From a virus (lineage: Duplodnaviria > Heunggongvirae > Uroviricota > Caudoviricetes), in the IMG/VR virus record IMGVR_UViG_2541047726_000006, positions 1 through 18,343 of that record: 18,343 nt of DNA. One strand, 5' to 3'. Below are positions 1 to 17,383 of the stretch, piece by piece. The notes beneath the pieces are model-generated. The model saw only the letters and a program-made list of their open reading frames with translations, was not told the DNA's origin and ran no database searches. Every line of letters begins with the position of its first letter. Positions within the stretch are counted from its first letter, which is position 1. The position numbers and the translations under genes were made by a program.

Positions 1-1119
1 TCAAATAACCAACTTAACCCATTCCTGACCTCGAGTATCGTTATAGCGATCGGTGGTTGCCTGGACTTTATGTCCTAGTAATGTTTTTGTATCGATACCC
101 TGTGCACGGTACAGCCGTTCTGATAGAGAGCGTTGTTCATGAAATGTTGGCGGAGTTTTTCCTGCTGGTGGAATTATCCCAGCCAGATCCCGTGCTTTGG
201 CAAAGTAGTCGCTCAGGTTGTCTTTACTCATCGGCTTCGGTTGTTTCTGGTGCCGACTATGGATTAGATATGGACTTAATATTCTGTCTCGGCACCCATC
301 AATAACTTCTTTTAACGTTATCCCAATGGCATCACAGCGTAGTGTAAGCGGTAACGCCAGACGCATTCCGGTTTTTCCCTGGGTGATATGCAAGTGTTCG
401 TTCCACACATCTGAAAAACGCATGTGGCAAATGTCATCACGGCGCTGACCAGTAACAATCGCAAGAAGCATTGCGTTACGGATAAAGTGTTTTTCAGGCG
501 TTGCATTGTAAATTTTTTGCCAGTCTTCCATGGTGAGCCTGGCTCTGGTTACTTTAGGGATCGGTTTACGGGTAGCCTCCGGAGGATTCCATCCAGGAGG
601 AACTTCCCCTGCATGCTGTGCTTCTTTATAAATATCAACCCATAATCCACGATTTACTCTCGCTGTGCTGACCATGTCTTTATCCAGCCACTCATCCAGT
701 ATTAATGCAAAGTCTCTTACTTCCAGTTCTTTCAATGGGTGGTTTCCCAGACGGGAAACCAGGTATGCAGCCATTCGAGTTTTTTCTTTGTGAGTTGTAG
801 CTGCAATATCTCCATTTTTCAGTCGCGTGTCCTGTATTTTCAGATATCGATCAACCCATGCCTTTAATCTGATACCCCGACGTTTTGTTGCTGACGGACT
901 TTCATCAATTTTGCGCATGAAATATTCAGCTTCTGCTGCAGCTATTCGCTGATTGGCTGTGGAAGCGATTTTTTCTGCCTTACCTTTGTCTGTTCCGAGT
1001 CCGTGAAATTTTCCAGTCACAGGATTTTTATACTGGTAGTAAACTCTGCCAGTTCTGCGATCAAACTTTTCGTAAAGACCGGCTACGTCAGTGCTGTTTT
1101 TTCGTGGCCTCGGTGACAT
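1..1119 (-). CDS. int: Phage tyrosine integrase, lambda Int family, complete (stop at 1-3)
   Basis: 372-aa ORF. C-terminus FHEQRSLSERLY...LLGHKVQATTDRYNDTRGQEW matches the lambda Int catalytic block (H-x-x-R and the nucleophilic Tyr) as recalled. Last gene of the leftward arm, so attL should lie just outside the window. Confidence 0.93.
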   Translation of the reverse strand: MSPRPRKNSTDVAGLYEKFDRRTGRVYYQYKNPVTGKFHGLGTDKGKAEKIASTANQRIAAAEAEYFMRKIDESPSATKRRGIRLKAWVDRYLKIQDTRLKNGDIAATTHKEKTRMAAYLVSRLGNHPLKELEVRDFALILDEWLDKDMVSTARVNRGLWVDIYKEAQHAGEVPPGWNPPEATRKPIPKVTRARLTMEDWQKIYNATPEKHFIRNAMLLAIVTGQRRDDICHMRFSDVWNEHLHITQGKTGMRLALPLTLRCDAIGITLKEVIDGCRDRILSPYLIHSRHQKQPKPMSKDNLSDYFAKARDLAGIIPPAGKTPPTFHEQRSLSERLYRAQGIDTKTLLGHKVQATTDRYNDTRGQEWVKLVI

Positions 1120-1357
1120 GAGTTAAAATCTCCTTCAGTGCATCATCATCGCCAGTATGAATTTCCGGCGCAATTCCCGTTTCACCAGGCCCAACAAATA
1201 CTGCTCGGCGATCTATCAGCCAACGCCCACGAATTTTTTGTGGTCTTGGAACGATGTATCCTAGTTTTCCGTATTTCACCAGGGTAGTGTTTGTTATTGG
1301 GAGACTGAACCGTTTTGGTTTCCACTCGTCGAGCGTTATCAGGTACTGTTCGCTCAT
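1088..1357 (-). CDS. xis: Putative excisionase-like protein
   Basis: 89-aa ORF directly upstream of int and overlapping it by about 30 nt, as in lambda xis/int. ATG at 1357 is preceded by a GGAGTGA Shine-Dalgarno; the ORF track extends to a GTG at 1366. Function is inferred from position only. Confidence 0.5.
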   Translation of the reverse strand: MSEQYLITLDEWKPKRFSLPITNTTLVKYGKLGYIVPRPQKIRGRWLIDRRAVFVGPGETGIAPEIHTGDDDALKEILTHVTEATKKQH

Positions 1358-1418
1358 GGCTATCACTCCGGAACGCGCCAGTTGCAGAATATCAACGACA
1401 ACTGGCGACGGTTGAACA

Positions 1419-3857
1419 TTAAAAATCAGCCTGACTCGGGATCAGTTTTTGCCAGATAACTGAAACGTATTTTGCCTGGTAACGGGCGTCATCAAGTGCA
1501 TTATGGCGCTCACCTTCGAATGGAATAGCCGTTCTGGCATCGAAGTCTATGGCTTTCCCCAGCTCAACGATTGTGCGTACATCTCGATCGTTGTAGTAAC
1601 GCCACGGGCAGGGGATCCCCTGCCGTTCGTATGAACGGCGCAAAATCGTGTTGTCGAAGTTGGCTCCATTTCCCCAGACCTGAACAAAAAATTCACCGGA
1701 GTTTTCGTCGATAAATTCCCGCAATTGTAACAGTGCATCATCTAACGGGATTTCATCGGTCATAATGGCAGATTGCGCTTCGCGTGATTGCTTAAGCCAC
1801 CATTTAATGGTGTCCCGATCAATGACCCCGCCAGCAGTTTCCAGATCGATAGTCTTACTAAATTCCGGTCCCATATCTCCGGTTTGCGGATCGAAAAATA
1901 TTGCACCTATTGAGATGATCGGGGCATCAGGATTTTTTCCCATGGTTTCAAGGTCGATCATTAGATGGTCACACGTCCTGCTGGTGGATGTGATAACATG
2001 ATGACCGTTCACCGTAATTAAGGGATCTGCCGTCTCGCCAGTTTCACTATCGCTGGCGTGATCCTGAGCGCTGCCAGCATTCTCCTTGTGTGGATGTTCA
2101 GCGCCTTCCATTTCCTTCGGATCATTTTCCTGAACTTCAACCTGATTCTCTTCATCGAATGTTTCCTGGTATGTTGCGTCGCCCATCACCGCGCCACAAT
2201 CAGGGCAGTTGCCGCCGCCGGTCTGACCGCAGGCGGTGCAGATCTTTTCCGGTTCCTGTTGCACTACTGGTTCAGGTTGTTTCGTTTCTGGCTCGTTTTG
2301 TAACGCATTTGGGCTGTTTTGTTCCGCTTTCTGGTCGTTCTGTTCCGATTCTTGCTGGTTCTGGTTTACAGAATCGCGGGTTTCAATCCCCTTTACCCAT
2401 TTCGGATCATTCGGGTCGCTAATCCCTGCAACAAATTCTCCGCGAGAGGCAGCAAGCAACTTATCGGCGTCAGGCTGGCTGATATTGGCTGCCTGCATAA
2501 TTTTGTTTACTTCGTCAGCGGTAACTTTTACCTGTGACTTGTCATCCAGCGGCTGCGGGTCCTGATGATGTTCAACTGTATCCGCTGCCATTGTTTCAGC
2601 CGTTGCCTGTTCATCTGCCATTGCGCCAGATGGTTGCGGGTTATCTTCATCATTTTTTTCTTCTTCTGTTTTGCACTCAGCAGCCAGTCCGCCGTTAATT
2701 TCTTCCAGGATATCTTTTTCCGGTGTATGCCGGGCAGCCATGAGCGTTTCAGCTGTGGGATTCTCGTGATCAGTTTCTGTCAGGTTGGCATTGATATACC
2801 CCTGAAGGCGCCCCGGGTAGTGATAAAACTCAGGGTGGGCGCTTCGGATAAGTGCAAAAATAGCTGCGCGGGAATAGTCCAGGATACCAGGGGTTGCGCG
2901 AAGTGCTGCGGACCATTCCCTGAACGGACTTTCTTTTTTCAGGACGATTTCTTTTGCGCGACGATAAACGCTGCCCGGAATTTCATAAATATTAAAATCC
3001 ATCGGAAGTGTGGCTGCTGCAATCTCCACATCCAGCGCATCGAAGGTGTGTACTAAATTCGGATTGCGATCGGTTTTGTTCCCGCCACCGGCATTTGCAC
3101 CGGAAGCCGTACGGGTGATACGCGAAACACGATTTCCTTTCATCCACTCTTTTGTCAGCAGACCCCGATCAGTGTAATCAGCGTCCAGGTATGCCTCGAA
3201 AAAAGCAGTTATCAGTCCCAGGTCTGAATTACCGGGATTAGGGAAAACTTTGTCAGTGTCGCGTACCAGTTTGTGAAGGTCGCGAATCTCCAGCGGGTCG
3301 AGCAGCTTTGTTTTGTGAGAAATGGCCAGGGCAGTAACAGCCGGCAGTTCTTCCGCCCGTGCTATATGTAATGCCTGAAGTTCTTCCCGTGCAACGTGCG
3401 TTACTGGTTTTTCGCTGCTGTGTTGCGCAAGCCAGCGAATGGGCAGCTCCTGACCAGAAACCGGCAGGAGCATATTCTCCTCAATCTCCGTCATGTCTTC
3501 GCCGTTGACGTTGGTATTGTCAGTACTGGCTGGTTTCTCCTGCACGGAGGGAGAGGGCGCGATAAATACCATTGTAATGCCATCTTCCCCGCCTTTTTCG
3601 TATCGGTTGCAGAATTCGGTATCAAACACGCCTTCAGGTGGAAGGTCATTCACAACGGGTAAATGGACGCGAACGGGTTTTTTAAAGTCGTCTTCATCAT
3701 AATCGTTGTCATCCATTGCGGTAATGCAGCGGGAGATGGCAACAGATAATTTTTTTGCTGTAGTCCAGTAAAAACCACCTTTAATTCCCAGACGTTTTCT
3801 GACTTTGTCATTTTTTGCTTCGCAATATAGCGCAAATTCTTCTTTATCAGTGCTCAT
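1419..3857 (-). CDS. Prophage exonuclease: RecE-like N-terminal region fused to a DEDDh (DnaQ-like) 3'-5' exonuclease domain
   Basis: 812-aa ORF with a GAGGT Shine-Dalgarno before the ATG at 3857. The C-terminal 180 aa carry the three DEDDh motifs: MIDLETMG (Exo I), [12 protein letters not shown] (Exo II), [13 protein letters not shown] (Exo III). N-terminal and central segments ([47 protein letters not shown]) resemble RecE of the Rac prophage as I recall it. Confidence 0.8.
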
Positions 3858-3949
3858 TGATAAACCTCATTACAGATTTAAGGGTGAACAAATCCCTGCC
3901 ATTGCTGGCATTTTTAATCCGTTGGTATGGTGTTAATATGGCTGGAGGG

Positions 3950-4138
3950 TTATCCAGCCGGTGTTTCGTTATTCAGGTACAGCGATACTTTTTTTACCGG
4001 GAGGCATTCACCAGAAATTTTTTGCTCGTCTCTTGCCTGGAGGCAGGATTCTTTACTGGCATAAATTCCGGTAATCACATTCTGTGATTCACCCGTTATA
4101 AGAAAAACCGTCATCATCAGTGCAAATGCTGAAGTCAT
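3950..4138 (-). CDS. YdfD-like small protein with an N-terminal hydrophobic segment (putative lysis/membrane protein)
   Basis: 62-aa ORF with a GGAGAG Shine-Dalgarno. Its ATG overlaps the stop of the dicB-like gene (ATGA). Hydrophobic N-terminus MTSAFALMMTVFLITG followed by two Cys. Same position as ydfD after dicB in the Qin prophage. Confidence 0.6.
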   Translation of the reverse strand: MTSAFALMMTVFLITGESQNVITGIYASKESCLQARDEQKISGECLPVKKVSLYLNNETPAG

Positions 4139-4323
4139 TGACGCTCTCCGAAAATACCAAGTTCAAGAAGAGCAATTCGGGAAAGTATGGAATTATCATT
4201 GAGCAGATAAGGCTCATATTTCCTCATATTAATGGCATCTTCAGTAAACTCCCGGTTACTGAGCAGAACACCAATATCAAAACAACCTTCAGACGTATTA
4301 ACGTTTGGTAATAACGTTTCCAT
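4135..4323 (-). CDS. dicB: DicB-like cell-division inhibitor
   Basis: 62-aa ORF with a GAGGA Shine-Dalgarno 7 nt upstream. N-terminus METLLPNVNTSEGCFDIGV...FTEDAIN closely matches E. coli DicB (MKTLLPNVNTSEGCFEIGV...) from memory. It lies immediately downstream of dicF, as in the Qin dicB operon. Confidence 0.8.
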   Translation of the reverse strand: METLLPNVNTSEGCFDIGVLLSNREFTEDAINMRKYEPYLLNDNSILSRIALLELGIFGERQ

Positions 4324-4501
4324 TATCGCGTCCTCAACAATGAATTTTGTGATGCAGTGCCTGGTGCCTCCAGGTGACGTTAACCAGTTAACAATTAACG
4401 CCGGGTTAGTTGATGCTCGTTACGCCAGTAAAAGACCGCCTTACTGCTTTAACTGTTCCGCGTGCGCTCAGCCGCATTCACCGCATCACAAAATTCACTT
4501 T

Positions 4502-4559
4502 AAAAAGGGCGGCAGAGCAGTCACGGAGTAAAACTGATACCGCCAAACGTCACCAGAAA
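4502..4559 (-). ncRNA. dicF: DicF small RNA (ftsZ-targeting sRNA)
   Basis: The reverse complement of 4502-4559 reads TTTCTGGTGACGTTTGGCGGTATCAGTTTTACTCCGTGACTGCTCTGCCGCCCTTTTT, which matches the DicF sequence I recall, including the terminal GC stem and U-run. Ends are approximate because DicF is processed from the operon transcript. Confidence 0.85.
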
Positions 4560-4898
4560 ATTGATAACAGAGGGCGTTGCAGCGGGGTTGTCACTTAAGC
4601 GTATGGTCAACCTGACAACCCGGTGTCCTCAACGGGGGAAGGAATAACCCCGCCATACTTACCGCCGCGCCATTTCGCGGATTGCCACAACCGGAAGCGC
4701 ACGGTCGACGAAAATTTAACGACAGGCTATCTATGAACCAGCTACCTCGCCGTACGCTTTCGCGTTATGGTCTGACTTTTCAGGGAAATATCCTTTCAGT
4801 AAACTGTCAGTGCCGGATTCTTATCCGTGTCCGGCGCACGACCACACGCTGTCACGAGAGGTCTCCATTCTCAACCAGTAACCTCAATGGAGGATAAA

Positions 4899-6222
<1,324 letters not shown>

Positions 6223-6334
6223 TATGGCACCTGTGTTGTTCTGAGGTGAGCATATCACCTCTGTTCAGGTGGCCAAATTCAGTAAACCACTTCATAACGT
6301 AGAAACGCTGATGCTAAAAAGATATCTTGATGGA

Positions 6335-6673
6335 TTAATCAGATAACATTTTTTTACGGCGTTCATATTCGTTAATATTTATGAAGCCTGTTGCCAGAAG
6401 CAGTTCGTTAATTTCATGGTTGTTTGGCTGTTTCTGGCTCTTTGAACTGGGATCTTCCACTTCTTTTTCTGCAAATTGTTTTGCTGTATCCTCTGTGCCA
6501 TGGATATTTAAAGCTGTATCTGAAAACAGCCCAGTAAACGCATCGCGCACATTGCGAGCCATATTATCAGTGTCTTTTTTTGTTACCGATTCCAATTCAA
6601 GTTCGTTCAGACGATGACGAAGTGTGTGTGCTGCAATCTCCTGGATTGAAGGAGGTAAATCTTTAAATTCCAT
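6335..6673 (-). CDS. Hypothetical early-left protein
   Basis: ORF MEFKDLPPSIQEIAAHTLRHRLNELE... of 112 aa from the ATG at 6673; an alternative ATG at 6685 overlaps the stop of the upstream gene. Downstream of the DUF1391-like gene in the PL operon. No family recognised. Confidence 0.55.
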   Translation of the reverse strand: MEFKDLPPSIQEIAAHTLRHRLNELELESVTKKDTDNMARNVRDAFTGLFSDTALNIHGTEDTAKQFAEKEVEDPSSKSQKQPNNHEINELLLATGFININEYERRKKMLSD

Positions 6674-6684
6674 CGTCAACCTCA

Positions 6685-6837
6685 TCAGTCAGTGTTTCTT
6701 GCTAACCAGCGATGCGCACCAGCTGCGGTTTTAAACGTTTTACTTTTGGTATACGTCATCGCGGTGAAGGTGCCGTCCTGGTTAGGGAACACACCGCATA
6801 CCAGAGATTCGTTGTTGCCAAGATTGAGCGTATCCAT
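6685..6837 (-). CDS. YdfA/YdaF-like small protein (DUF1391-type)
   Basis: 50-aa ORF MDTLNLGNNESLVCGVFPNQDGTFTAMTYTKSKTFKTAAGAHRWLARNTD. It is the first gene downstream of the putative PL, as ydfA is in the Qin dicB operon. Family assignment is from memory. Confidence 0.65.
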   Translation of the reverse strand: MDTLNLGNNESLVCGVFPNQDGTFTAMTYTKSKTFKTAAGAHRWLARNTD

Positions 6838-7010
6838 GTTGACCTCATTTCCCCTTAACGCCGGGGTAGCGGAACAAAAAACCTGCTGCGCTGTTATACA
6901 AAGTGTTCCCGCCGTCATGTTCATACGCCTCGGGCTGGCTACTTAACCCCTGACCACTGCCGGGTAACTCGAAGTATTTCCCTGCGTTCTGTGGGGCGGG
7001 GTGGGTTGGT

Positions 7011-7065
7011 ATTTTTAGTTTAATAAACATTAAACTTAAGTCAAGTAAAAACTAAACCGAGGGGC
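7011..7065 (-). promoter_or_regulatory. Putative leftward early promoter PL with operator OL
   Basis: On the minus strand, TTGACT (complement of 7039-7044), a 16-bp spacer, then TAAACT (complement of 7017-7022). The adjacent AAACTAAACCGAGG (7048-7062) is nearly identical to the AACACTAAACCGAGG motif in the PR region. Confidence 0.5.
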
Positions 7066-7128
7066 ATAACAAACACAACGCTTTTGATAAAGTCGTTGCG
7101 GTTGTTATGTTTCTATTGGTAGTGAAAG

Positions 7129-7407
7129 TTAGGGAAACTGGCGTCTTGCGTGGATCACGTTTACTACTTCAACGCTTGATGTTGTTACGCGGTATAGAAT
7201 TATATAGTTAGGGTGGGCTACAATCTCACGCAAGCCAGGTACTCTGTCGCTTGGTGGGTATAAATACGGATGTTCGGATAACGGCAGCACACAACCCCTT
7301 AATCGCTGCCATAAGCGTTCAGCCGCATCTATGTCGAAACGAGCAATATAACTAGTTATATCATCTAGGTCGGTATCTGCGCTTTCAAGCCATAACACGG
7401 GTAACAT
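7129..7407 (-). CDS. parE2: ParE-family toxin (RelE/ParE superfamily)
   Basis: 92-aa product MLPVLWLESADTDLDDITSYIARFDIDAAERLWQRLRGCVLPLSEHPYLYPPSDRVPGLREIVAHPNYIILYRVTTSSVEVVNVIHARRQFP fits the ParE pattern. Its start is 1 nt after the antitoxin stop, which suggests translational coupling. The symbol follows the PaaR2-PaaA2-ParE2 system of E. coli O157:H7 as I recall it. Confidence 0.8.
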   Translation of the reverse strand: MLPVLWLESADTDLDDITSYIARFDIDAAERLWQRLRGCVLPLSEHPYLYPPSDRVPGLREIVAHPNYIILYRVTTSSVEVVNVIHARRQFP

Positions 7408-7408
7408 T

Positions 7409-7600
7409 TTACTGCTTGCTCCGTTCCTTACGCATCTTAGCAAAGCGTTCTGCCATTCTGCGCTCAACTTCGTCATGGGGAATTGCTGGGCGCGGATCTG
7501 CAAGGCTCGTTGCTACTTTCGCACGCAGCCATTCGTTGTAACTGTTTTCTTGTTCAATGGTTTCAAATTCAGAAACCATTGGTGAAAGGGCTCTATTCAT
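7409..7600 (-). CDS. paaA2: PaaA2-type antitoxin
   Basis: 63-aa product MNRALSPMVSEFETIEQENSYNEWLRAKVATSLADPRPAIPHDEVERRMAERFAKMRKERSKQ with a CGGAGG Shine-Dalgarno before the ATG at 7600. Size and sequence match PaaA2 as I recall it, and it sits directly upstream of the ParE toxin. Confidence 0.8.
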   Translation of the reverse strand: MNRALSPMVSEFETIEQENSYNEWLRAKVATSLADPRPAIPHDEVERRMAERFAKMRKERSKQ

Positions 7601-7620
7601 GTTTCCTCCGGTTTTATAAC

Positions 7621-7992
7621 TCAGGCGCGGCGGCATTTTTGCGCCGCAATCCATCTCGCTATGAGATCTTCCATTGATTCTTTTTTCTGCTTTAACTCGC
7701 TGATTATCTGGCGTTGCTCATCCTCAGGGAAGGCTGAAAAAATCTGCAATAATTCCAGTTGATTAGACGTTAACCCTGCATGTGGTGGAGAAACCCCCGG
7801 TTGTTCTGCGTATTCCGCATCCAGATACCCTTCCGGCATCCCGTATGTTTGCTCTATTCTTCTGGCAGCCTTTTCTCCAAACGAGGCTCTCCCACTCATT
7901 AGTTGAGATAGGTAGCTCTTCTCTTTGGGTGGCAGAGTTTTATCTTTAAACCACTCCTTGAGACGTAAACGGCGAATTTCTTTTTTTTGCAT
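7621..7992 (-). CDS. DicA/RacR-type HTH repressor in the cI position (PaaR2-like)
   Basis: 123-aa product from the ATG at 7992. XRE-type helix-turn-helix KSYLSQLMSGRASFGEKAARRIEQTYGMPEGYLD and a C-terminal LELLQIFSAFPEDEQ segment resembling the DicA C-terminus. No S24 peptidase domain. Divergent from the cro-like gene, with no Shine-Dalgarno, so possibly leaderless like lambda cI. Confidence 0.75.
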   Translation of the reverse strand: MQKKEIRRLRLKEWFKDKTLPPKEKSYLSQLMSGRASFGEKAARRIEQTYGMPEGYLDAEYAEQPGVSPPHAGLTSNQLELLQIFSAFPEDEQRQIISELKQKKESMEDLIARWIAAQKCRRA

Positions 7993-8089
7993 GTGGTAAT
8001 TATCTTTAGTAATCACTAAACAAGCAAATACTTGACTTAATGGTTTATTAAACACTAAACTCGCAAAAAAACACTAAACCGAGGAAGGT
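7993..8089. promoter_or_regulatory. Divergent promoter/operator region (OR with PR, probably also the repressor promoter)
   Basis: Three direct CACTAAAC repeats at 8014-8021, 8053-8060 and 8072-8079. Near-palindrome TTTAGTAATCACTAAA at 8005-8020. PR candidate: TTGACT at 8032-8037 and TAAACT at 8056-8061, 18-bp spacer, upstream of the cro-like ATG at 8090. Confidence 0.6.
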
Positions 8090-8392
8090 ATGACATTAAA
8101 AGAGTTTATTAAATCATTAAGGGTTGGTGATGCTAAGAAATTCGCGGCCAGACTTGGTGTATCGCCATCTTACTTATCGCAAATGGCGTCTGGACGAACA
8201 GCTATATCTCCAACCCGCGCCCTTATGATCGAATCTGCGACGGAAGGCCAAGTAAGTAGGGCGGAGCTACGACCCCATGATTGGGAGCTTATTTGGCCTG
8301 AGTATGCGAGCGGCATTCGTTTGGGGCAAACACATGTAGTTCATGCTGAAGGTGATTGTAGTACATGCTTATCTGATGGAGTTGATTCATGA
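8090..8392 (+). CDS. Cro-like / YdaS-family HTH regulator
   Basis: 100-aa ORF with a GAGGAAGG Shine-Dalgarno. The segment LGVSPSYLSQMASGRTAISPTRALMIESATEGQVSRAELRP resembles Rac YdaS. It is divergent from the repressor, in the cro position. Confidence 0.7.
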   Translation: MTLKEFIKSLRVGDAKKFAARLGVSPSYLSQMASGRTAISPTRALMIESATEGQVSRAELRPHDWELIWPEYASGIRLGQTHVVHAEGDCSTCLSDGVDS

Positions 8393-8814
8393 AAATCAAG
8401 CATGAACACATCCGCATGGCGATGAATGTCTGGGCGCATCCGGACGGCGAAAAAGTACCGGCTGCGAAAATTACCAAAGCGTATTTCGAGCTGGGAATGA
8501 CGTTCCCGGAACTGTATGACGACAGCCATCCGGAAGCCCTGGCCCGTAATACCCAGAAAATTTTCCGTTGGCTGGATAAAGACACCCCTGATGCTGTTGA
8601 AAAAATGCAGGCTCTGTTACCGGCGATCGAAAAGGCGATGCCGCCTTTGCTGGTGGCCCGTATGCGCAGCCACAGTTCTGAATATTACCGTGAGATCGTC
8701 GAACGGAGGGATCGGCTGGTGAAGGATGTCGATGATTTTGTTGCGTCAGCGGTTGTTTTGTATGACCAGATGAATCGCGGCGGCCCGGCAGGGAATGCTG
8801 TGGTGATGCACTAA
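8389..8814 (+). CDS. YdaT-like protein (cII-position gene)
   Basis: 141-aa ORF starting MKIKHEHI, which is the YdaT N-terminus as I recall it. Its start overlaps the cro-like stop (ATGA). Confidence 0.65.
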   Translation: MKIKHEHIRMAMNVWAHPDGEKVPAAKITKAYFELGMTFPELYDDSHPEALARNTQKIFRWLDKDTPDAVEKMQALLPAIEKAMPPLLVARMRSHSSEYYREIVERRDRLVKDVDDFVASAVVLYDQMNRGGPAGNAVVMH

Positions 8815-8836
8815 AAGCACGGTGTTCGGGGGTTTT

Positions 8837-9799
8837 ATGAGCAGCAAGCTTCATGGTCTTGTCTGGGAAGGGTGCGCCTTCACCGGCATGATCTTATCCA
8901 GGGTGGCGGTTATGGCCCGTCTTGCAGACTACAGCAATGACGAGGGTGTGTCATGGCCTGCCATTGAAACTATCCGGCGTCAGATCGGTGCAAGAAGTGA
9001 ATCCACAGTGAAATCGGCTATTGCAGAACTGGCGAAAGAGGGCTGGCTGACGAAGGAAGAGCGTAAGGTCGGTGGGCGTAATGTAAGCAATATCTATCGG
9101 CTTAATGTGGAAAAACTCGAAGCAGCTGCGGCGGCGGCGCGTGAGTCATATAAACCGAAAAGAAAAATTAGCCCGGCAAAAAATGACCCGTTAACAGTTG
9201 ACCCGTCAAATATTGACCCCTCAACGGTTGACCCGTCAAATTTTGATGGATCAACTGTTGATAAAAAACTGCCGATTAGGGGGGCGATGATTGACCCCGA
9301 TCCGTCAGTATTAAAACCTGATCCGTCAGATAAAAGATCTTCTTGTCCGGACGCTTCGCAACCGGACCCGCAGACGGCTGAACAGGATTTTTTAACCCGA
9401 CACCCTGACGCGGTTGTGTTCAGTGCGAAAAAACGCCAGTGGGGAAGTCAGGAAGATTTGGTGTGCGCACAGTGGATCTGGGGACGAATCGTGAGTCTTT
9501 ACGAGCAGGCGGCCAGCTATGATGGCGAGATCACTAGACCGAAAGAACCCAACTGGACAGCATGGGCCAATGACGTTCGCACAATGCGGATGCTGGATGG
9601 CAGAACTCACAGACAAATTTGTGAAATGTTTGGGCGTCTCCAGCGGGATTCGTTCTGGGTAAAAAACATCATGAGTCCGGCAAAACTCCGGGAAAAATGG
9701 GATGAACTGGTTATCCGCCTGGGGCGTTCGCCTGCGCAGCGTTGCGTGAATCACATTTCTGAACCGGACACTGAAATACCGCCGGGATTCAGGGGGTGA
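8837..9799 (+). CDS. Replication initiator, O-like, with an N-terminal winged helix and a DnaT-like C-terminal region
   Basis: ATG at 8837 (the track ORF begins at an upstream GTG at 8822). The central peptide repeats DPLTV-DPSNI-DPSTV-DPSNF-DGSTV are encoded by DNA iterons. It precedes the DnaC-like gene. Confidence 0.75.
   Translation: MSSKLHGLVWEGCAFTGMILSRVAVMARLADYSNDEGVSWPAIETIRRQIGARSESTVKSAIAELAKEGWLTKEERKVGGRNVSNIYRLNVEKLEAAAAAARESYKPKRKISPAKNDPLTVDPSNIDPSTVDPSNFDGSTVDKKLPIRGAMIDPDPSVLKPDPSDKRSSCPDASQPDPQTAEQDFLTRHPDAVVFSAKKRQWGSQEDLVCAQWIWGRIVSLYEQAASYDGEITRPKEPNWTAWANDVRTMRMLDGRTHRQICEMFGRLQRDSFWVKNIMSPAKLREKWDELVIRLGRSPAQRCVNHISEPDTEIPPGFRG
9184..9258 (+). repeat. Five tandem 15-bp iterons (TGACCCGTCAAAT-like), putative phage origin inside the O-like gene
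   Basis: TGACCCGTTAACAGT, TGACCCGTCAAATAT, TGACCCCTCAACGGT, TGACCCGTCAAATTT, TGATGGATCAACTGT, followed by the A-rich TGATAAAAAACTG. This is analogous to lambda ori lying within gene O. Confidence 0.55.
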
Positions 9800-9805
9800 C
9801 GTGTC

Positions 9806-10552
9806 ATGAAAAACATTGCGGCAGTTGGGGTTCTTGAACGTATTCGCAGACTTGCACCACAGGGGGCGGTTCCACCGTACCGGACGGTGGAGGAGTGGCG
9901 GGAATGGCAACTTGCTGAAGGACGAAAACGCAGCGAGGAGATTAACCGCCAGAATCGCCAGTTGCGGGTGGAAAAAATCCTGAATCGTTCGGGCATCCAG
10001 CCTCTGCACAGCAAATGCTCGTTTGCAAATTATCAGGTGCAGAACGACGGGCAAAAATACGCGCTGAGCCAGGCCAAATCCATAGCTGACGAACTGATGA
10101 CCGGGTGCACGAATTTTGTGTTCAGCGGTAAAACCGGCACCGGGAAAAATCACCTTGCAGCGGCGATGGGCAACCGGCTGATGGTGAAGGGGCGCAGCGT
10201 GATTATCGTCACCGTGTCTGACGTCATGAGCGTGTTGCATGACAGCTACGACAACGGCAAATCCGGGGAAAAATTTTTACAGGAGCTTTGCGGGGTTGAT
10301 TTGCTGGTCCTGGATGAAATAGGCGTTCAGCGGGAGACGAAAAACGAGCAGGTGGTATTGCACCAGATAATTGATCGCCGGACAGCATCACTGTGCAGTG
10401 TCGGGATGTTAACAAACCTGAATCATGCCGCAATGAGTACGCTTCTTGGTGAGAGGATTATGGACCGCATGACCATGAACGGTGGTCGATGGGTGACGTT
10501 TAACTGGGATAGCTGGCGTCCAAATGTCAGCAATATGAGGGTTGTGAAGTAA
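9806..10552 (+). CDS. DnaC-like helicase loader (IstB-type AAA+ ATPase)
   Basis: 248-aa ORF with an AGGGGG Shine-Dalgarno. Walker A FSGKTGTGKNHLAAA and Walker B LLVLDEIG. Sits in the YdaV/DnaC position after the O-like gene. Confidence 0.9.
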   Translation: MKNIAAVGVLERIRRLAPQGAVPPYRTVEEWREWQLAEGRKRSEEINRQNRQLRVEKILNRSGIQPLHSKCSFANYQVQNDGQKYALSQAKSIADELMTGCTNFVFSGKTGTGKNHLAAAMGNRLMVKGRSVIIVTVSDVMSVLHDSYDNGKSGEKFLQELCGVDLLVLDEIGVQRETKNEQVVLHQIIDRRTASLCSVGMLTNLNHAAMSTLLGERIMDRMTMNGGRWVTFNWDSWRPNVSNMRVVK

Positions 10553-10573
10553 TTTTGTCCGGAGGAAATTTTA

Positions 10574-11344
10574 ATGGAAACCGTATCTGACGCACTGAAA
10601 GCACTGAAAAAAGCCTCTTCACATGTGGTGGCAGCTCGCCTTGGAATCAGTCGTGAAGAGGCTGTCAACGAGCTGTGGGAACTCAAAAGAAAAGGCGTCG
10701 TTGATAAAACTGGTCACACCTGGTTTCTGGCTGGCGAAGGTGAATCCCGGGTAACCGAAGAGCGGCCAGTAAAATCTGAAGCACAGGATATGCTGACCGG
10801 GGAGGTCGAACAAAAAGTTACCGCAGACATGATGATTGAGTTTATCGGTCAGGATGGGGCTAAAACGTGTGAGGAACTGGCGGGTAAGTTCGGTGTCAGT
10901 ACTCGCAAGGTTGCTTCCACGCTGGCGGTGGTAACCGCAACGGGGCGGCTGGCACGCGTTAATCAGAACGGTAAATTTCGTTACTGCATGCCGGGCGATA
11001 ATTTACCAGCAGAGCCGAAAGCCGCGCTGGTAACGGAAAGTGATGGTAAGGCCTTTCCTCAGCCAGCAGGTGCTGCGTTACCAGTCCGGGAAGCCGCAAC
11101 ACAGGAAGAAATTAAAACAGAAACTGTGGCGGACATTGTGCAGCCGTTGCCATCGTTTACCGAAACGCAAGCAGATGAGCTGATTTTTCCGTCCCTTCGC
11201 AGGGCAAACCTGGCGCTGCGCAGGGCGAAAAGTGATGTTCAGAAGTGGGAGCGAGTCTGCGCCGCGCTGCGGGAGCTGAACAAGCACCGGGATATTGTTC
11301 GACAGATTACTGATTCTTCCCGCCGTGTTGTATCGGAAAAGTGA
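10574..11344 (+). CDS. Hypothetical protein with two tandem winged-helix-like repeats
   Basis: 256-aa ORF with GGAGGA 8 nt upstream. Internal repeat: VVAARLGISREEAVNELWELKRKGVVDKTGHTWFLAGEG versus TCEELAGKFGVSTRKVASTLAVVTATGRLARVNQNGKFRYCMPGD. Confidence 0.7.
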   Translation: METVSDALKALKKASSHVVAARLGISREEAVNELWELKRKGVVDKTGHTWFLAGEGESRVTEERPVKSEAQDMLTGEVEQKVTADMMIEFIGQDGAKTCEELAGKFGVSTRKVASTLAVVTATGRLARVNQNGKFRYCMPGDNLPAEPKAALVTESDGKAFPQPAGAALPVREAATQEEIKTETVADIVQPLPSFTETQADELIFPSLRRANLALRRAKSDVQKWERVCAALRELNKHRDIVRQITDSSRRVVSEK

Positions 11345-11359
11345 TTGCCGGAGGCGCTT

Positions 11360-11752
11360 ATGGCAAAAGTATTTACACCAGAAGAGCGGGAAGAAGTGAA
11401 GGCGCGCATTGTGGAATTCGTGCGCCTGAGCGGACGAGAAACTTTTCGACAACTGGCAGATAAAACGGGTGTCAGTAAGACCGCTATTCGTCGTTTATCT
11501 GGTGCGCTTGCGGCCAGTGGTGATGTCTGGCTCTCTGGTTGCGGGGTATTTCCATCAGAGCAGGTGTATCGCGTATGGCGTAAGACACCGGAGAAGGCTG
11601 CTGACCCGACACTGATTCGAAAGTTACCTGACGGAGAAATACGTCGTTACAACAGACGGCAGAACATAATTTGTCGTGAGTGCCGCCAGAGCGAAGTTAT
11701 GCAGCGTGTGCTGGCGTTCTATCGGGGAAACTTTCAGGAGGTGATGGAGTGA
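11360..11752 (+). CDS. Hypothetical protein with a winged-helix-like segment related to the upstream gene
   Basis: 130-aa product from the ATG at 11360 with a GGAGG Shine-Dalgarno. The segment ETFRQLADKTGVSKTAIRRLSGALAASGDVWLSGCG resembles the repeats of the preceding protein. Confidence 0.6.
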   Translation: MAKVFTPEEREEVKARIVEFVRLSGRETFRQLADKTGVSKTAIRRLSGALAASGDVWLSGCGVFPSEQVYRVWRKTPEKAADPTLIRKLPDGEIRRYNRRQNIICRECRQSEVMQRVLAFYRGNFQEVME

Positions 11753-12045
11753 GGGTCAGAGTTTATATTGCCGGTCCAATGACGGGATATGAAAATTTCA
11801 ACCGTGAGGCGTTTCACAAGGCGGAAGAGGAACTGAAACGGGAAGGGCATACCGTCTTAAACCCGGCAGTACTTCCGGACGGGCTGACACAGCCGCACTA
11901 CATGGATATTTGCATGGCAATGATTCGTTGTGTGGATGCGATTTACATGCTGAATGGCTGGCAGCGGTCAGCGGGCGCTAAGGCAGAGCTGGCACTGGCG
12001 GAGAAACTGGGGCATGCAGTGATTTATCAGGAGGTGGCTCAATGA
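11749..12045 (+). CDS. DUF4406-like protein (nucleoside 2-deoxyribosyltransferase-like fold)
   Basis: GTG start at 11749 with AGGAGG at 11735-11740. The product VRVYIAGPMTGYENFNREAFHKAEEELKREGHTVLNPA...DAIYMLNGWQRSAGAKAELALAEKLGHAVIY fits the DUF4406 pattern as I recall it. Confidence 0.65.
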   Translation: MRVRVYIAGPMTGYENFNREAFHKAEEELKREGHTVLNPAVLPDGLTQPHYMDICMAMIRCVDAIYMLNGWQRSAGAKAELALAEKLGHAVIYQEVAQ

Positions 12046-12503
12046 GAGAGGTTAACTATGAGGCGCTTCGTGAGGCAGCACAAAACTATCAGTCGACGCT
12101 GGCGTGGTATCAGGCTATCCCGGACAGCCCAAATGCTGAACGGGATTGTGATGCGGCTCTTGCTGCGTTTAAGCGTCACATCCGTCATCGGGAAGCGGAT
12201 ATTATCGCTGATTTGCTGGATGGACTGGAAGAAGCAAAATCACAACTCAAAGAGCAGCGTGAGTATTACGAAGGCGTTATCTCTGATGGGAGCAAGCGTA
12301 TTGCTGAACTGGAAGCGCGGGAAGTTCAATTACCGACTCGCTACGACCTTCGATATGGACACCCGATAAATGCAGATGAGCGACATGTCATGATACCTAA
12401 AGAAAATGGCAGTTGGCTTTACCTGATTGACCTAGAACACGCATTACGCGTCTCTGGCATTCGCATCAAAGGAGAGGAGCATGGAAATAAAACCAGAGGA
12501 TGA
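12042..12503 (+). CDS. Hypothetical protein
   Basis: 153-aa ORF with a CAGGAGGTGG Shine-Dalgarno. No family recognised. Confidence 0.6.
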   Translation: MREVNYEALREAAQNYQSTLAWYQAIPDSPNAERDCDAALAAFKRHIRHREADIIADLLDGLEEAKSQLKEQREYYEGVISDGSKRIAELEAREVQLPTRYDLRYGHPINADERHVMIPKENGSWLYLIDLEHALRVSGIRIKGEEHGNKTRG

Positions 12504-12837
12504 GTTAAGCAATATCGTTTTATTTCCGGTAAAAGAGGATGACCCTCGTAATCAGGTTAATTTTCTTTATGAGCCATCGGAAAGACCATATTGTCATCAC
12601 GCCTCTGTCCGGGTTGACGAAAAAGAGCGTCAGGTCCGCTGTAAAATCTGCGGTGCAGTTGTGGAGCCATTTGACTGGATGCTCTCTGTGGCGAAAAGAG
12701 AAACCAGACTGGCAGATGATGTAAGGCACTTGCGCCAGGAGGAGCGGGAAAGGCGAAAAAATATAGAAAAGCTAATTCAGATTGAGCGTAACGCGAAAGC
12801 GCGGATACGCAGGGCGACAAAATCCAGAACTGAATAA
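12481..12837 (+). CDS. Hypothetical protein with a putative zinc ribbon (CHH...CxxC) and a basic coiled-coil tail
   Basis: 118-aa ORF with an AGGAGAGGAG Shine-Dalgarno. Motif YCHHASVRVDEKERQVRCKICGAV, then an Arg/Lys/Glu-rich C-terminus. Confidence 0.6.
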   Translation: MEIKPEDELSNIVLFPVKEDDPRNQVNFLYEPSERPYCHHASVRVDEKERQVRCKICGAVVEPFDWMLSVAKRETRLADDVRHLRQEERERRKNIEKLIQIERNAKARIRRATKSRTE

Positions 12838-12901
12838 TTAAATTTAGCTCTGTTAAAAATTTAATCCTTAACCGGAGGGATTTCTGCACCCTCAGAACAT
12901 C

Positions 12902-12930
12902 AGGAGGCCGCCCGAAAGGGCGGTAGTTAA
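12902..12930 (+). promoter_or_regulatory. Split ribosome-binding site: AGGAGG separated from the ATG by a GC stem with a GAAA tetraloop
   Basis: AGGAGG at 12902-12907, hairpin CCGCCC-GAAA-GGGCGG at 12908-12923, then AGTTAA and the ATG at 12931. Linear spacing is 23 nt; with the hairpin formed the effective spacing is about 6-7 nt. Confidence 0.4.
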
Positions 12931-13113
12931 ATGCGAAAGTTTAAAATAATTATTGAAACGGGAATAGCCGGTGGAGATTTCGAGGATGAATTCGAAGTGG
13001 ATGATGATGCGATGCCTGATGAAATACATGACGAAGCAAAAGATATTTTCTTTAACTACTGCAATTACTCATATCACGAAATAAAAGACGAAGAGGAAGA
13101 GCAAAATGGCTGA
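12931..13113 (+). CDS. Small highly acidic protein (60 aa, about 20 Asp/Glu)
   Basis: MRKFKIIIETGIAGGDFEDEFEVDDDAMPDEIHDEAKDIFFNYCNYSYHEIKDEEEEQNG. AT-rich coding sequence. Its stop overlaps the next start. Confidence 0.5.
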   Translation: MRKFKIIIETGIAGGDFEDEFEVDDDAMPDEIHDEAKDIFFNYCNYSYHEIKDEEEEQNG

Positions 13114-13282
13114 TTTTGGTTCAACTAAATACAACGTCAGTTTTGAAGCATGGCATGAACTGTTAATGGACTATGCAGAGTTACGTGGTGGCAGTGCTGC
13201 TGATGCTGAAGCATGGCGTGATGATTATGAAGCAGGAAAAACTCCGGTCGAAGCATATTGTGATGAGTGGGGCGATGAATGA
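13106..13282 (+). CDS. Small acidic protein (58 aa), absent from the ORF track because it is under 60 aa
   Basis: ATG at 13106 preceded by GAGGAAG. Product MADFGSTKYNVSFEAWHELLMDYAELRGGSAADAEAWRDDYEAGKTPVEAYCDEWGDE. Start overlaps the previous stop and stop overlaps the next start (ATGA). Confidence 0.45.
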   Translation: MADFGSTKYNVSFEAWHELLMDYAELRGGSAADAEAWRDDYEAGKTPVEAYCDEWGDE

Positions 13283-13794
13283 GCGAGATTAATTATCAGG
13301 AAGGGCATGAAACGGCAGGGCAGGCAAAACCAGTTGCATGGCGATATCGCTACGTGAAAAAAGACGTTACAGACTTTCAGGGGAAGCCGTGGGCTGGTGA
13401 CTGGAAATATGTACCGACAAAAGAGGATTGTAACGACAGGCCGAACTATGAAATTCAGGCCTTATTCATCGGCCCGCCAGTCCCGGTGACATCAGAAGGA
13501 CTGGTTAAAGCCGTGCGCTTTTATGAACAGGTAAAGCGTGAGAATCCGCCAGTCGAAACAGGAGCATGGAAGGATGCTGTTGACTGGGTGCTCAGAGAGG
13601 CCTGCTGCGCTGCCATTCTGGGTAAAGCCGACAATCCACCAGCATCCGGCAATCAGGTTAGCGAATTAACAATGTGGGTTAAACGACTGGTCAGTCAACT
13701 GAAAAAAGCTCAGCCGGACTGTAAATTACCGGAGAAGGCGATGGATTACCTGAAACGAAATGGACTGATAAGCGTGGAGGATGTTTTACGATGA
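13279..13794 (+). CDS. Hypothetical protein
   Basis: 171-aa ORF translationally coupled to the two acidic ORFs. No family recognised. Confidence 0.6.
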   Translation: MSEINYQEGHETAGQAKPVAWRYRYVKKDVTDFQGKPWAGDWKYVPTKEDCNDRPNYEIQALFIGPPVPVTSEGLVKAVRFYEQVKRENPPVETGAWKDAVDWVLREACCAAILGKADNPPASGNQVSELTMWVKRLVSQLKKAQPDCKLPEKAMDYLKRNGLISVEDVLR

Positions 13795-13838
13795 ATATTT
13801 AGACTAAAGAGTTTGTAACGCTATGTAAGTGATTTTTT

Positions 13839-13870
13839 CTGGTTTAGATATTTATATGTCCGGCCAAATT
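13839..13870 (+). repeat. Imperfect direct repeat, copy 1 (GGTTTAG-ATATTTA-TGTCCGG-CAAA)
   Basis: CTGGTTTAGATATTTATATGTCCGGCCAAATT resembles TTGGTTTAGTTGGATATTTACTGTGCCGGACAAAAA at 14110-14145. The two copies bracket the small membrane-protein ORF. Confidence 0.45.
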
Positions 13871-13914
13871 GAGGTGTGTTTAAATGTTATTGCACATTGA
13901 TTGTAGGGGGAATA

Positions 13915-14094
13915 ATGAAAAACGCATTGCAGTTTTTGTTTGTTGCGTTCTGGTTGTTCGCATCATGTATGCCCATCATCTTCACAGCAAGGTATATGGA
14001 AAAAATTGATGTTTTGATATTAATGTTTGGACATATAAATGCCCTTTTTTTAGGGGTGTTCATGGCGGTCATGTGCATTGAATACTGGCGGTAA
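13915..14094 (+). CDS. Small hydrophobic protein (59 aa, two predicted transmembrane segments)
   Basis: ATG at 13915 with an AGGGGG Shine-Dalgarno. Product MKNALQFLFVAFWLFASCMPIIFTARYMEKIDVLILMFGHINALFLGVFMAVMCIEYWR. Lies in a very AT-rich segment. Confidence 0.45.
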   Translation: MKNALQFLFVAFWLFASCMPIIFTARYMEKIDVLILMFGHINALFLGVFMAVMCIEYWR

Positions 14095-14109
14095 ATACAG
14101 CGAACGCCA

Positions 14110-14145
14110 TTGGTTTAGTTGGATATTTACTGTGCCGGACAAAAA
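14110..14145 (+). repeat. Imperfect direct repeat, copy 2
   Basis: See copy 1 at 13839-13870. This copy sits just upstream of the putative hok promoter (TTGCGG-N16-TAGAAT, about 14150-14177). Confidence 0.45.
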
Positions 14146-14237
14146 CGGTTTGCGGGGAAATCTTAGTTAAGTAGAATAACTGCGGGTGCTTGAGGCTATC
14201 TGTCTCAGGCATGAACACCAAAAGGCAGATAGAGAAA

Positions 14238-14302
14238 AGCCCCAGTTAACATTACGCGTCCTGCAAGACGCTTAACATTAATCTGAGGCCATATCTATGC
14301 GA
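14238..14302 (-). ncRNA. sok: Putative Sok-like antisense RNA, position inferred only
   Basis: By analogy with plasmid R1 hok/sok, the antisense RNA should cover the mok leader and start region. A candidate minus-strand -35 TTGACC is the complement of 14334-14339. Ends are not determined. Confidence 0.25.
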
Positions 14303-14356
14303 CACATAGAGATTAGCCTCTTACGGACCGAAAGGTCAAGGAGAAGCAGGCTATGA
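14297..14356 (+). CDS. mok: Short mok-like leader ORF (19 codons) ending in overlap with the hok start
   Basis: ATG at 14297 preceded by GAGG; encodes MRHIEISLLRTERSRRSRL and stops at TGA 14354-14356, overlapping the hok ATG at 14353 (ATGA). Confidence 0.3.
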   Translation: MRHIEISLLRTERSRRSRL

Positions 14357-14508
14357 AGCAGCAAAAGGCGATGTTAATCGCCCTGATCGTCATCTGTTTA
14401 ACCGTCATAGTGACGGCACTGGTAACGAGGAAAGACCTCTGCGAGGTACGAATCCGAACCGGCCAGACGGAGGTCGCTGTCTTCACAGCTTACGAACCTG
14501 AGGAGTAA
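14353..14508 (+). CDS. hok: Hok-family type I toxin (51 aa), absent from the ORF track because it is under 60 aa
   Basis: MKQQKAMLIALIVICLTVIVTALVTRKDLCEVRIRTGQTEVAVFTAYEPEE matches the Hok/HokD (RelF) family as I recall it. The upstream leader has complementary CUAUCUG/CAGAUAG elements. Confidence 0.9.
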   Translation: MKQQKAMLIALIVICLTVIVTALVTRKDLCEVRIRTGQTEVAVFTAYEPEE

Positions 14509-14578
14509 GAGACCCGGCGAGGGAGAAATCCCTCGCCACCTCTGATGTGGCAGGCATTCTCAACGCACCCGCACTTAA

Positions 14579-14603
14579 CCCGCTTCGGCGGGTTTTGTTT
14601 TTT
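14579..14603 (+). terminator. Rho-independent terminator of the hok transcript
   Basis: CCCGC-TTCG-GCGGG stem-loop followed by TTTTGTTTTTT. An additional perfect 8-bp stem GGCGAGGG/CCCTCGCC lies at 14516-14537. Confidence 0.7.
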
Positions 14604-14675
14604 CCTGGCATTCTGGTTTACAATTCGCACGCCAGCCTGAACAACTGGCACCTGCTGCGCCAGCAGAGACAACCG

Positions 14676-14954
14676 ATGGCGCACGATACCAAATTACACA
14701 ATTCTGATAATTCAGCCGTCTTTGCCAGCAGGCGCGGACGGTGTTTTCACGCATTCAAATCTGACTGGTTCCAGCATCCCCCATGCACTGAAGAACAGGC
14801 CGAGTGGCTAATTCAGTGCTACCGCAGACACGGATACGAGATTAAGAAAGCCCTCAGCCTCGATTATCGTCACTGGATAATCTCCGTCAGGCTTCCTTAC
14901 TCCGAACGACCACCGCGTCCGTCCCGCACATTCCAGCAACGCATCTGGAGGTAA
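14676..14954 (+). CDS. Hypothetical protein (92 aa) between hok and the DUF968 gene
   Basis: ATG at 14676 inside a longer GTG-initiated track ORF. Same position as rem in the Qin prophage. No family recognised with confidence. Confidence 0.5.
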   Translation: MAHDTKLHNSDNSAVFASRRGRCFHAFKSDWFQHPPCTEEQAEWLIQCYRRHGYEIKKALSLDYRHWIISVRLPYSERPPRPSRTFQQRIWR

Positions 14955-14955
14955 C

Positions 14956-16002
14956 GTGCGGGTATTACTTCGACCTGTTCTGGTACCGGAACTCGGGCTG
15001 GTGATCGTTAAGCCGGGCCGTGAATCCATGCCGGTATTCCACAATACCCGGGTACTGGTGGAGCCGGAACCGAAAAGCATGCGTAATCTGCCGTCCGGGG
15101 TCGTTCCTGCCGTTCGCCAGCCGCTGGCGGAGGATAAATCATTACTGCCATTTTTCAGCGACGAACGAGTGATTCGTGCTGCTGGTGGCGCTGGCGCATT
15201 GTCTGACTGGTTACTGCGCCATGTTAAATCCTGCCAGTGGCCACACGGCGATTATCACCACAGTGAAACCGTCATTCACCGTTATGGTACCGGCGCAATG
15301 GTGTTGTGCTGGCACTGCGACAACCAGCTGCGCGACCAGACCTCCGAATCACTCGGGCAACTTGCTCACCAAAACCTGTCTGCATGGATGATTGACGTCA
15401 TACGCCATGCAATGAATGGCTCGCAGGAACGGGAATTATCGCTGGCTGAATTATCCTGGTGGGCGGTCCGCAATCAGGTGGCGGACGCGCTACCGGAAGC
15501 GGTATTACGTCGTTCGCTGGGGTTGCGTGCGGAAAAAATCCGCTCAATGTACCGTGAAAGCGACATCGTACCGGGAGAGCAGACCGCCACCAGCATACTG
15601 AAGCAGCGCACAAAAAATCTTGCGCCGCTGCCTCACGCCCACCAGCAAAACCCGCCACAGGAAGAGACGGTGGTCAGCATTGCCGTTGATCCTGAGTCTC
15701 CGGAATCTTTCATGAAACGACCTAAACGTCGCCGCTGGGTTAACGAGAAATACACACGCTGGGTGAAGACACAGCCGTGTGCGTGTTGTGGTAAGCCAGC
15801 CGACGATCCCCATCACCTGATTGGTCATGGTCAGGGCGGAATGGGGACAAAATCTCACGATATTTTCACGCTACCGCTGTGTCGGGAGCATCACAACGAG
15901 CTTCATGCGGATCCTCTGGCGTTCGAAGAAAAGCATGGTTCTCAGGTTGATTTAATTTTTCGTTTTCTTGATCACGCCTTTGCAACTGGCGTGCTTGGGT
16001 AA
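14956..16002 (+). CDS. YdfU-like DUF968 protein with a C-terminal Cys/His-rich motif
   Basis: 348-aa ORF with a GTG start and a GGAGG Shine-Dalgarno. C-terminal motif CACCGKPADDPHHLIGHGQGGMGTKSHDIFTLPLCREHHNELH. Size and position match Qin YdfU. Confidence 0.75.
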   Translation: MRVLLRPVLVPELGLVIVKPGRESMPVFHNTRVLVEPEPKSMRNLPSGVVPAVRQPLAEDKSLLPFFSDERVIRAAGGAGALSDWLLRHVKSCQWPHGDYHHSETVIHRYGTGAMVLCWHCDNQLRDQTSESLGQLAHQNLSAWMIDVIRHAMNGSQERELSLAELSWWAVRNQVADALPEAVLRRSLGLRAEKIRSMYRESDIVPGEQTATSILKQRTKNLAPLPHAHQQNPPQEETVVSIAVDPESPESFMKRPKRRRWVNEKYTRWVKTQPCACCGKPADDPHHLIGHGQGGMGTKSHDIFTLPLCREHHNELHADPLAFEEKHGSQVDLIFRFLDHAFATGVLG

Positions 16003-16014
16003 AAGAGGTGACTG

Positions 16015-16374: not shown

Positions 16375-16382
16375 GCGTAAAT

Positions 16383-16934: not shown

Positions 16935-17013
16935 TCAATAAACTGCTTCAATCCGTATAAGCTTCGCAAAGCTGTATCGCGAGGCGAAACGCAAGTTTTT
17001 TTCGCACAAGGAA

Positions 17014-17366: not shown

Positions 17367-17383
17367 ATTTGTGGTAAATGGGC

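Follow-up and report, generated by a model that had tools for sequence, protein, structure and literature searches.

Phage lambda provides the reference layout for a lambdoid immunity region (PL/OL-rexB-rexA-cI-PRM/OR/PR-cro-cII-O-P, where L and R mark the leftward and rightward promoters and operators). Much closer to the locus described here is the paaR2-paaA2-parE2 toxin-antitoxin (TA) locus of CP-933P, a cryptic lambdoid prophage of Escherichia coli O157:H7, where it lies within the immunity region (Jurenas et al. 2021, mBio, PMC8630535). There the TA genes 'replace rexB and rexA' and PaaR2 replaces CI (Prolic-Kalinsek et al. 2023, PMC9986795). We analysed an 18,343-nucleotide stretch of viral DNA (IMG/VR record IMGVR_UViG_2541047726_000006, positions 1 to 18,343; hereafter the window), in which a first-pass annotation had placed a ParE toxin gene, a PaaA2-type antitoxin gene and a prophage repressor gene between left and right operators. 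We are highly confident that the locus serves a lambdoid E. coli prophage as its immunity region and carries the known three-component paaR2-paaA2-parE2 system, with PaaR2 as the CI-type repressor. Our own evidence consists of gene order, spacing, protein identities, operator and promoter sequences, and the identity of OR to the O157:H7 DNA that has been studied; binding, repression, leaderless translation, bistability and addiction are taken from the literature.

Compared with the CP-933P (Sp12) RAE2 locus (Hallez et al. 2010; PMC8630535), the genes, their order, their spacing and the 97-bp OR were all the same, whereas the host prophage backbone differed and the window has an IS3-family element in the PL operon. 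With lambda the locus shares its architecture: the repressor gene points leftward and is followed by passenger genes that the lysogen expresses, genes of Cro-like and CII-like type diverge from it, two operator clusters stand about 1 kb from each other, the repressor mRNA is leaderless, and the replication genes are on the right-hand side. Sequence similarity to lambda is absent, however; the repressor has only 123 residues and lacks an S24 autocleavage domain, four 18-bp repeats stand in place of three operators, and the TA pair replaces rexAB. The analogy to the rexAB-cI slot drawn by the annotation is the one stated in PMC9986795. The features of the module are:

7014-7057, minus strand: OL-type operator cluster with leftward promoter PL (-35 TTGACT at 7044-7039, -10 TAAACT at 7022-7017; TTGACT-16-TAAACT).
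7129-7407, minus strand: parE2, ParE-family toxin of 92 residues (Pfam ParE_toxin PF05016, E = 1.9e-16).
7409-7600, minus strand: paaA2, antitoxin of 63 residues with no DNA-binding domain (Pfam PaaA2 PF21217, E = 1e-19).
7621-7992, minus strand: paaR2, CI-analogue repressor of 123 residues starting MQKKE, third component of the TA operon.
8027-7999, minus strand: candidate PRM (TTGCTT-17-GATAAT; hexamers read from the sequence).
7993-8089, no strand assigned: OR, the divergent control region, 97 bp between paaR2 and ydaS with four 18-bp repeats at 8004-8079.
8032-8061, plus strand: PR (TTGACT-18-TAAACT).
8090-8392, plus strand: ydaS, Cro analogue of 100 residues (Pfam YdaS_toxin and HTH_3).
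8382-8399, plus strand: YdaT operator OM, TTGATTCATGAAAATCAA, where ydaS meets ydaT, close to the published PRE promoter.
8389-8814, plus strand: ydaT, CII analogue of 141 residues (Pfam YdaT_toxin).

The open reading frame (ORF) list and the raw sequence both showed three co-oriented minus-strand genes in the order paaR2, paaA2, parE2, and the span originally singled out, 7011-8089, brackets OL to OR precisely. The tight stacking described in the annotation was confirmed from the raw sequence, with exactly 1 nt between the paaA2 stop codon (7409-7411) and the parE2 ATG (7405-7407). The gap between paaR2 and paaA2 is 20 nt and contains a GGAGG ahead of paaA2. When the DNA was scanned for promoters, the interval between paaR2 and paaA2/parE2 yielded none of the sigma-70 consensus type. 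A toxin promoter independent of the repressor would have spoken against the proposed circuit, and the same scan gave no credible paaA2-parE2 promoter; the one other minus-strand match, at 7388-7360, was rejected, as it lies inside parE2, past its start, and such matches occurred at background frequency (5 found vs 4.0 expected). The short gaps and the lack of an intergenic consensus promoter are consistent with co-transcription of the three genes and their repression by PaaR2. Operon status and PaaR2 repression have been published for the identical sequence (PMC8630535).

Protein comparison established the identities of toxin and antitoxin. ParE2 was identical at 92/92 residues to the crystallised E. 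coli O157:H7 protein (PDB 5CW7 chain B), with weak matches also to 3KXE, 6X0A and 5CEG, and its match to PF05016 exceeded the gathering score. PaaA2 was 100% identical to PDB 3ZBE/5CW7, residues 2-63 aligning to 3ZBE without mismatch; PF21217 was its sole Pfam match, and no helix-turn-helix (HTH) or ribbon-helix-helix domain was detected. Both proteins were identical to the copies of E. coli O157:H7 TW14359. The statement of the annotation that the system is known from O157:H7 is correct, the proteins being identical or near-identical and the locus published. The literature argues against the annotation's description of the toxin as a gyrase poison: GyrA59 binding by ParE2 is reported to be absent, and the toxin is 'published as not inhibiting gyrase'. 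There are reports that it induces SOS and colocalises with the nucleoid, and PMC8630535 still counts its target as unknown. ParE2 is thus not an established gyrase poison.

The repressor proved to be PaaR2 itself, as the annotation had conditionally proposed for the third component. Its residues 1-66 were identical to PDB 7NKV/8C3K, in which the N-terminal domain of PaaR2 was crystallised under the deposited name 'Phage repressor protein CI', and 122/123 residues matched PaaR2 of O157:H7 TW14359. The sole change, G67V (codon 67, window 7792-7794), falls in the linker that joins the DNA-binding domain to the oligomerisation domain. The temperate coliphage Evi has EI at this place, and the linker looks like the variable spot of PaaR2. 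The start MQKKE is the N-terminus that was sequenced in PMC8630535, where 5' RACE (rapid amplification of cDNA ends) together with the N-terminal sequencing (MQKKE) showed the paaR2 mRNA to be leaderless, like that of cI. We found no Pfam match of any kind for PaaR2, and no Peptidase_S24 domain; its C-terminal 49 residues gave a weak, sub-threshold NCBIfam match to the C-terminus of DicA. The missing S24 autocleavage domain was also noted in PMC8630535, along with the lack of a mitomycin C response, and, lacking this domain, PaaR2 is not RecA/SOS-responsive. PaaR2 is a functional analogue of CI and not a member of the CI/LexA family.

We then compared the operators. Three exact copies of CACTAAAC were found in OR, at 8014, 8053 and 8072, and these are the only ones in the window. 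Each forms the right half of an 18-bp pseudo-palindrome (CTTTAGTAATCACTAAAC, GTTTATTAAACACTAAAC and CGCAAAAAAACACTAAAC). Four 18-bp inverted repeats with the consensus GTTTAGTAA were defined in PMC8630535. All 97 bp of OR were identical, base for base, to O157:H7 TW14359. With the candidate PRM, transcription would begin at the A of the paaR2 ATG, in keeping with a leaderless mRNA. The arrangement is of the lambdoid type, with a divergent repressor/Cro-like pair and a short region of shared repeated operators lying over two promoters. In the published work, electrophoretic mobility shift assays (EMSA) and DNase I footprinting showed both PaaR2, with a footprint of about 78 bp, and YdaS to bind 'the 97-bp intergenic region', and PRM and PR were cross-regulated by the two proteins (PMC8630535). 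Binding of the repressor to the operator repeats, on which the annotation depended, is thus covered by published footprint and repression data on sequence identical to OR here.

A second operator cluster with a leftward promoter lies beyond the repressor operon, as in other lambdoid immunity regions. Its half-sites (TTTAGTTT, CATTAAAC and AACTAAAC) are related to the OR motif, inverted repeats are also present, and copies of CACTAAAC with one mismatch occur at 7028 and 7050. The promoter scan showed identical hexamers in PL and PR (TTGACT/TAAACT), with spacers of 16 and 18, respectively. OL/PL was identical to O157:H7 TW14359, with two single-nucleotide differences just outside; the identical stretch covers 6910-7060. 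PL933P/OL1-3, downstream of parE2 in the published locus, was repressed about 100-fold by both PaaR2 and YdaS (PMC8630535).

On the rightward side, YdaS was identical to its O157 counterpart at 99/100 residues (T92A, codon at 8363-8365) and YdaT was 100% identical; PaaR2 G67V and YdaS T92A are the only protein differences from O157:H7 across the five immunity genes. OM exactly matches the published YdaT operator 5'-TTGATTN6AATCAA-3', mapped by Prolic-Kalinsek et al. 2023 (PMC9986795), and this is the single match in the window. The identity of ydaT and the match at OM point to a CII-type activator with its own site. Activation itself is published: YdaS and YdaT act as Cro and CII, and YdaT activates PRE (PMC8630535). 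We infer that the published properties would transfer unchanged to this non-O157 copy with its two substitutions.

Taken together with the published work, these data suggest the following mechanism. PaaR2 would bind the OR operators so as to repress PR (ydaS-ydaT-replication genes) and control its own leaderless PRM transcript, and would repress PL through the second operator set, OL. YdaS, which is Cro-like, competes for the same operators, giving a bistable switch. The paaA2 and parE2 genes would follow directly after paaR2 on the same transcript, in the position of lambda's rexA-rexB, and because of this shared transcript they are expected to be expressed whenever PRM or the YdaT-activated PRE fires. 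ParE2 would be kept inactive by PaaA2, which is labile and degraded by ClpAP/ClpXP, so cells losing the locus would be killed (post-segregational killing) and the immunity region would become addictive. Both the bistability of the switch and the stabilisation of plasmids by the locus through post-segregational killing have been published (PMC8630535). The proposal that the immunity switch and TA control form one circuit is upheld by 5' RACE, EMSA, DNase I footprinting and reporter data on sequence with an identical OR (PMC8630535).

The coupling of lysogeny to an addiction module, also put forward by the annotation, held in part: toxicity follows physical loss of the locus, but a switch of immunity state does not release the toxin. 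The expected toxin activation on loss of the repressor is contradicted by published single-cell data, which showed no ParE2 activation (SOS) in either immunity state. Cells in the paaR2-on state did not differ from ydaST-on cells in SOS induction, and both contained the TA transcript (PMC8630535). Repressor loss by switching therefore does not release the toxin.

Several related systems share parts of this layout. The Rac (racR-ydaS-ydaT) and Qin (dicA-dicC) prophages of E. coli K-12 have the same repressor/YdaS/YdaT layout and the left-arm DUF1391 and dicB-type genes, and the weak match of the PaaR2 C-terminus to that of DicA is a further likeness; by published descriptions they have no TA pair downstream of the repressor, and YdaS and YdaT share only 26-31% identity with their Rac counterparts (PMC8630535). 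Two-component parDE modules (RK2 ParDE, Vibrio cholerae ParDE2, Caulobacter ParDE1) share the ParE-fold toxin (PF05016). Unlike in classical parDE, PaaA2 has no DNA-binding domain and autoregulation falls to a separate repressor, and, unlike the gyrase-inhibiting RK2 ParE and VcParE2, ParE2 is reported not to bind GyrA59. The omega-epsilon-zeta system of the Streptococcus plasmid pSM19035 also has a separate regulator gene upstream of an antitoxin-toxin pair, but its proteins belong to unrelated families, and omega acts simply as a repressor of the operon, with no role in a phage lysis-lysogeny switch.

To see how widely the module occurs, 5426 complete E. coli genomes were searched. The paaR2 gene with OR was found in 593 of them and the whole 1.5-kb block in 590, indicating strict linkage. 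The TA pair occurred in 633, of which 594 had it at >=95% identity. Near-perfect nucleotide conservation in at least 590 genomes is consistent with recent horizontal spread, and would also suit a purely selfish hitchhiker that brings neither phage nor host any benefit and persists by addiction alone, as would the demonstrated post-segregational killing and the lack of a phenotype on state switching (PMC8630535). We consider this explanation unlikely, though it differs from the stabilisation model only in the beneficiary, and sequence data cannot separate the two.

Additional TA copies, in about 40 genomes, follow a different repressor. In strain 99-3311 (NZ_CP101310, positions 3489-4512 of the segment compared) the proteins of a paaA/parE pair were 93-95% identical to PaaA2 and ParE2, and the repressor was a 132-residue HTH protein with an N-domain unrelated to that of PaaR2 and a C-domain 52% identical to it. 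This locus has its own OL/OR repeat motif, CACTT[T/A]TAAAGTTA, and a different Cro and YdaT; at the DNA level it matches the window from the DUF1391 genes across parE and paaA, with the homology stopping at the paaA start. By megablast, a repressor of this type with its OR was found in 37 genomes. The published paaR1-paaA1-parE1 of O157 prophage CP-933M was considered as its identity, but none of the 30 listed matches (of 37) carried an O157:H7 label; O157:H7 records showed one TA place per record among the matches listed. The 99-3311-type TA is probably a variant other than paaR1-paaA1-parE1.

This variant bears on the question of whether PaaR2 is a dedicated TA regulator only, a split-off antitoxin DNA-binding domain, with the true prophage repressor elsewhere. 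Such a role could account for a PaaA2 that has no DNA-binding domain, the separate regulator being readable as the missing half, and for a PaaR2 with neither a Pfam match nor an S24 peptidase domain. It is nevertheless highly improbable and largely refuted. There is no other repressor-like gene between PL and PR; PaaR2 lies divergently to a Cro-like gene, the two sharing operators, and PL carries a second operator set. Published work showed PaaR2 repression of both PR and PL and mutually exclusive states (PMC8630535). Finally, the presence of a 93-95% identical TA pair behind a different repressor with its own operators indicates that the regulator follows the phage immunity type and not the TA.

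A third arrangement was seen in strain RM9245 (NZ_CP044314, positions 3489-4789 of the segment compared), which has a four-gene stack. A PaaR2-like repressor (74% identical) comes first, followed by a second HTH gene of 153 residues (62% identical to the 99-3311 repressor), whose C-terminal extension overlaps the antitoxin start; antitoxin and toxin then complete the stack. It resembles the outcome of recombination between two immunity types, with the TA retained.

An intact paaR2-paaA2-parE2 was also found in phage Evi (LR597642, 24235-25313), which was isolated from infant faecal E. coli and has a full head, tail, terminase and lysis gene set. The module is thus not confined to cryptic prophages. 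In Evi, ParE2 is identical, PaaA2 carries K54R, PaaR2 has linker changes, and parE2 is unannotated in the record. An intact cassette in a plaque-forming temperate phage and behind two different repressors suggests that live phages, and not decaying prophages alone, gain from it. Together with the position and the lysogen-expressed transcript that the pair has in common with rexAB, and with the finding in published work of no physiological ParE2 trigger, this leaves some room for the pair to act mainly in superinfection exclusion or abortive-infection defence from the lysogenic transcript, and not as an addiction module. We regard that as quite unlikely, given that the literature considered on paaR2-paaA2-parE2 holds no phage-defence data while plasmid stabilisation by post-segregational killing was directly shown (PMC8630535).

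Outside the module we recorded the following features on the left-hand side:

7065-7109, minus strand: hairpin with the parE2 stop on one side and the PL -35 on the other, an inverted repeat with 21-nt arms that are 81% complementary.
6685-6924, minus strand: first ORF of the PL early-left transcript (Pfam DUF1391, E = 6e-29).
5045-6294: IS3-family element of 1250 bp, with orfA at 5920-6258 and orfB at 5075-5893, both on the minus strand.

The hairpin is stable (RNA fold centroid -19.6 kcal/mol, z = -4.8 vs shuffles) and almost invariant in O157 and phage Evi. The terminator scan made no call there, and a clean T-run is absent. The hairpin may be a terminator or insulator separating the PRM/PRE transcript from PL. 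The DUF1391 ORF is annotated as a 50-residue DUF1391 protein in NZ_OZ001728, a 100%-identical record.

Window 6291-18343 was 99.96% identical to a prophage adjoining potC in strain FFFEB2, the nearest complete genome, while the left part was 94-95% identical; ATCC 25922 and ST131-type strains also carry this prophage next to potC. The window is not from O157. A sharp mosaic breakpoint at window 6848 marks where homology to O157 sets in. Rightward from there to about 11100, identity to O157:H7 CP-933P/Sp12-type sequence is 95-99%; on the left, the early-left genes of the two prophages differ, with ydfC and an ECs_2282-family protein in O157 and the DUF1391 ORF and a 116-residue ORF here. In the late-regulatory region, a near-identical record has an annotated hokD type I toxin gene (17954-18109 of the segment compared, about 14353-14508 in the window), and by this annotation the same prophage carries a second, unrelated TA system.

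The IS3-family element is bounded by terminal inverted repeats (TGAAGTGG...GGCCACC) and flanked by a 3-bp TAA target duplication, and it is missing from the otherwise near-identical FFFEB2 prophage. In FDAARGOS_1293, a close relative, an ISEc52-family IS3-like transposase is annotated under the window match. The element lies about 40 bp downstream of the 116-residue ORF (6335-6685) and about 1.9 kb left of the module, where it interrupts the early-left operon of PL ahead of dicB and the exonuclease genes.

Some of these observations weigh against reading the locus as an immunity region in which the published circuit operates as described. The early-left arm of this prophage may be defective owing to the insertion. 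Appreciable TA transcription was seen in both immunity states with a published reporter, so expression is not strictly tied to the PaaR2 level. Moreover, PaaR2 and YdaS carry the G67V and T92A substitutions relative to O157, the copy used in the published experiments.

The distribution of the module is compatible with the published idea that the TA guards the immunity region. More tentatively, paaA2-parE2 could be a passenger that is portable among live lambdoid immunity regions, with a role that benefits active phages, and not a relic confined to a cryptic O157 prophage; we think this improbable. Were it so, the cassette might provide RexAB-like superinfection exclusion, or might kill recombinants with a swapped heteroimmune region, whichever repressor drives it. 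The module, its three components, the rexAB-cI placement, OL/OR, PaaR2 binding, bistability and addiction are already published for essentially identical sequence, and so is the immunity-region placement that the first-pass annotation had held to be the point of interest, as the replacement of rexAB is stated in PMC9986795. What is added here is the prevalence of the module, its presence in an active phage and a heteroimmune variant; these are minor additions, and they bear on the published idea that the TA may protect the immunity region from replacement.

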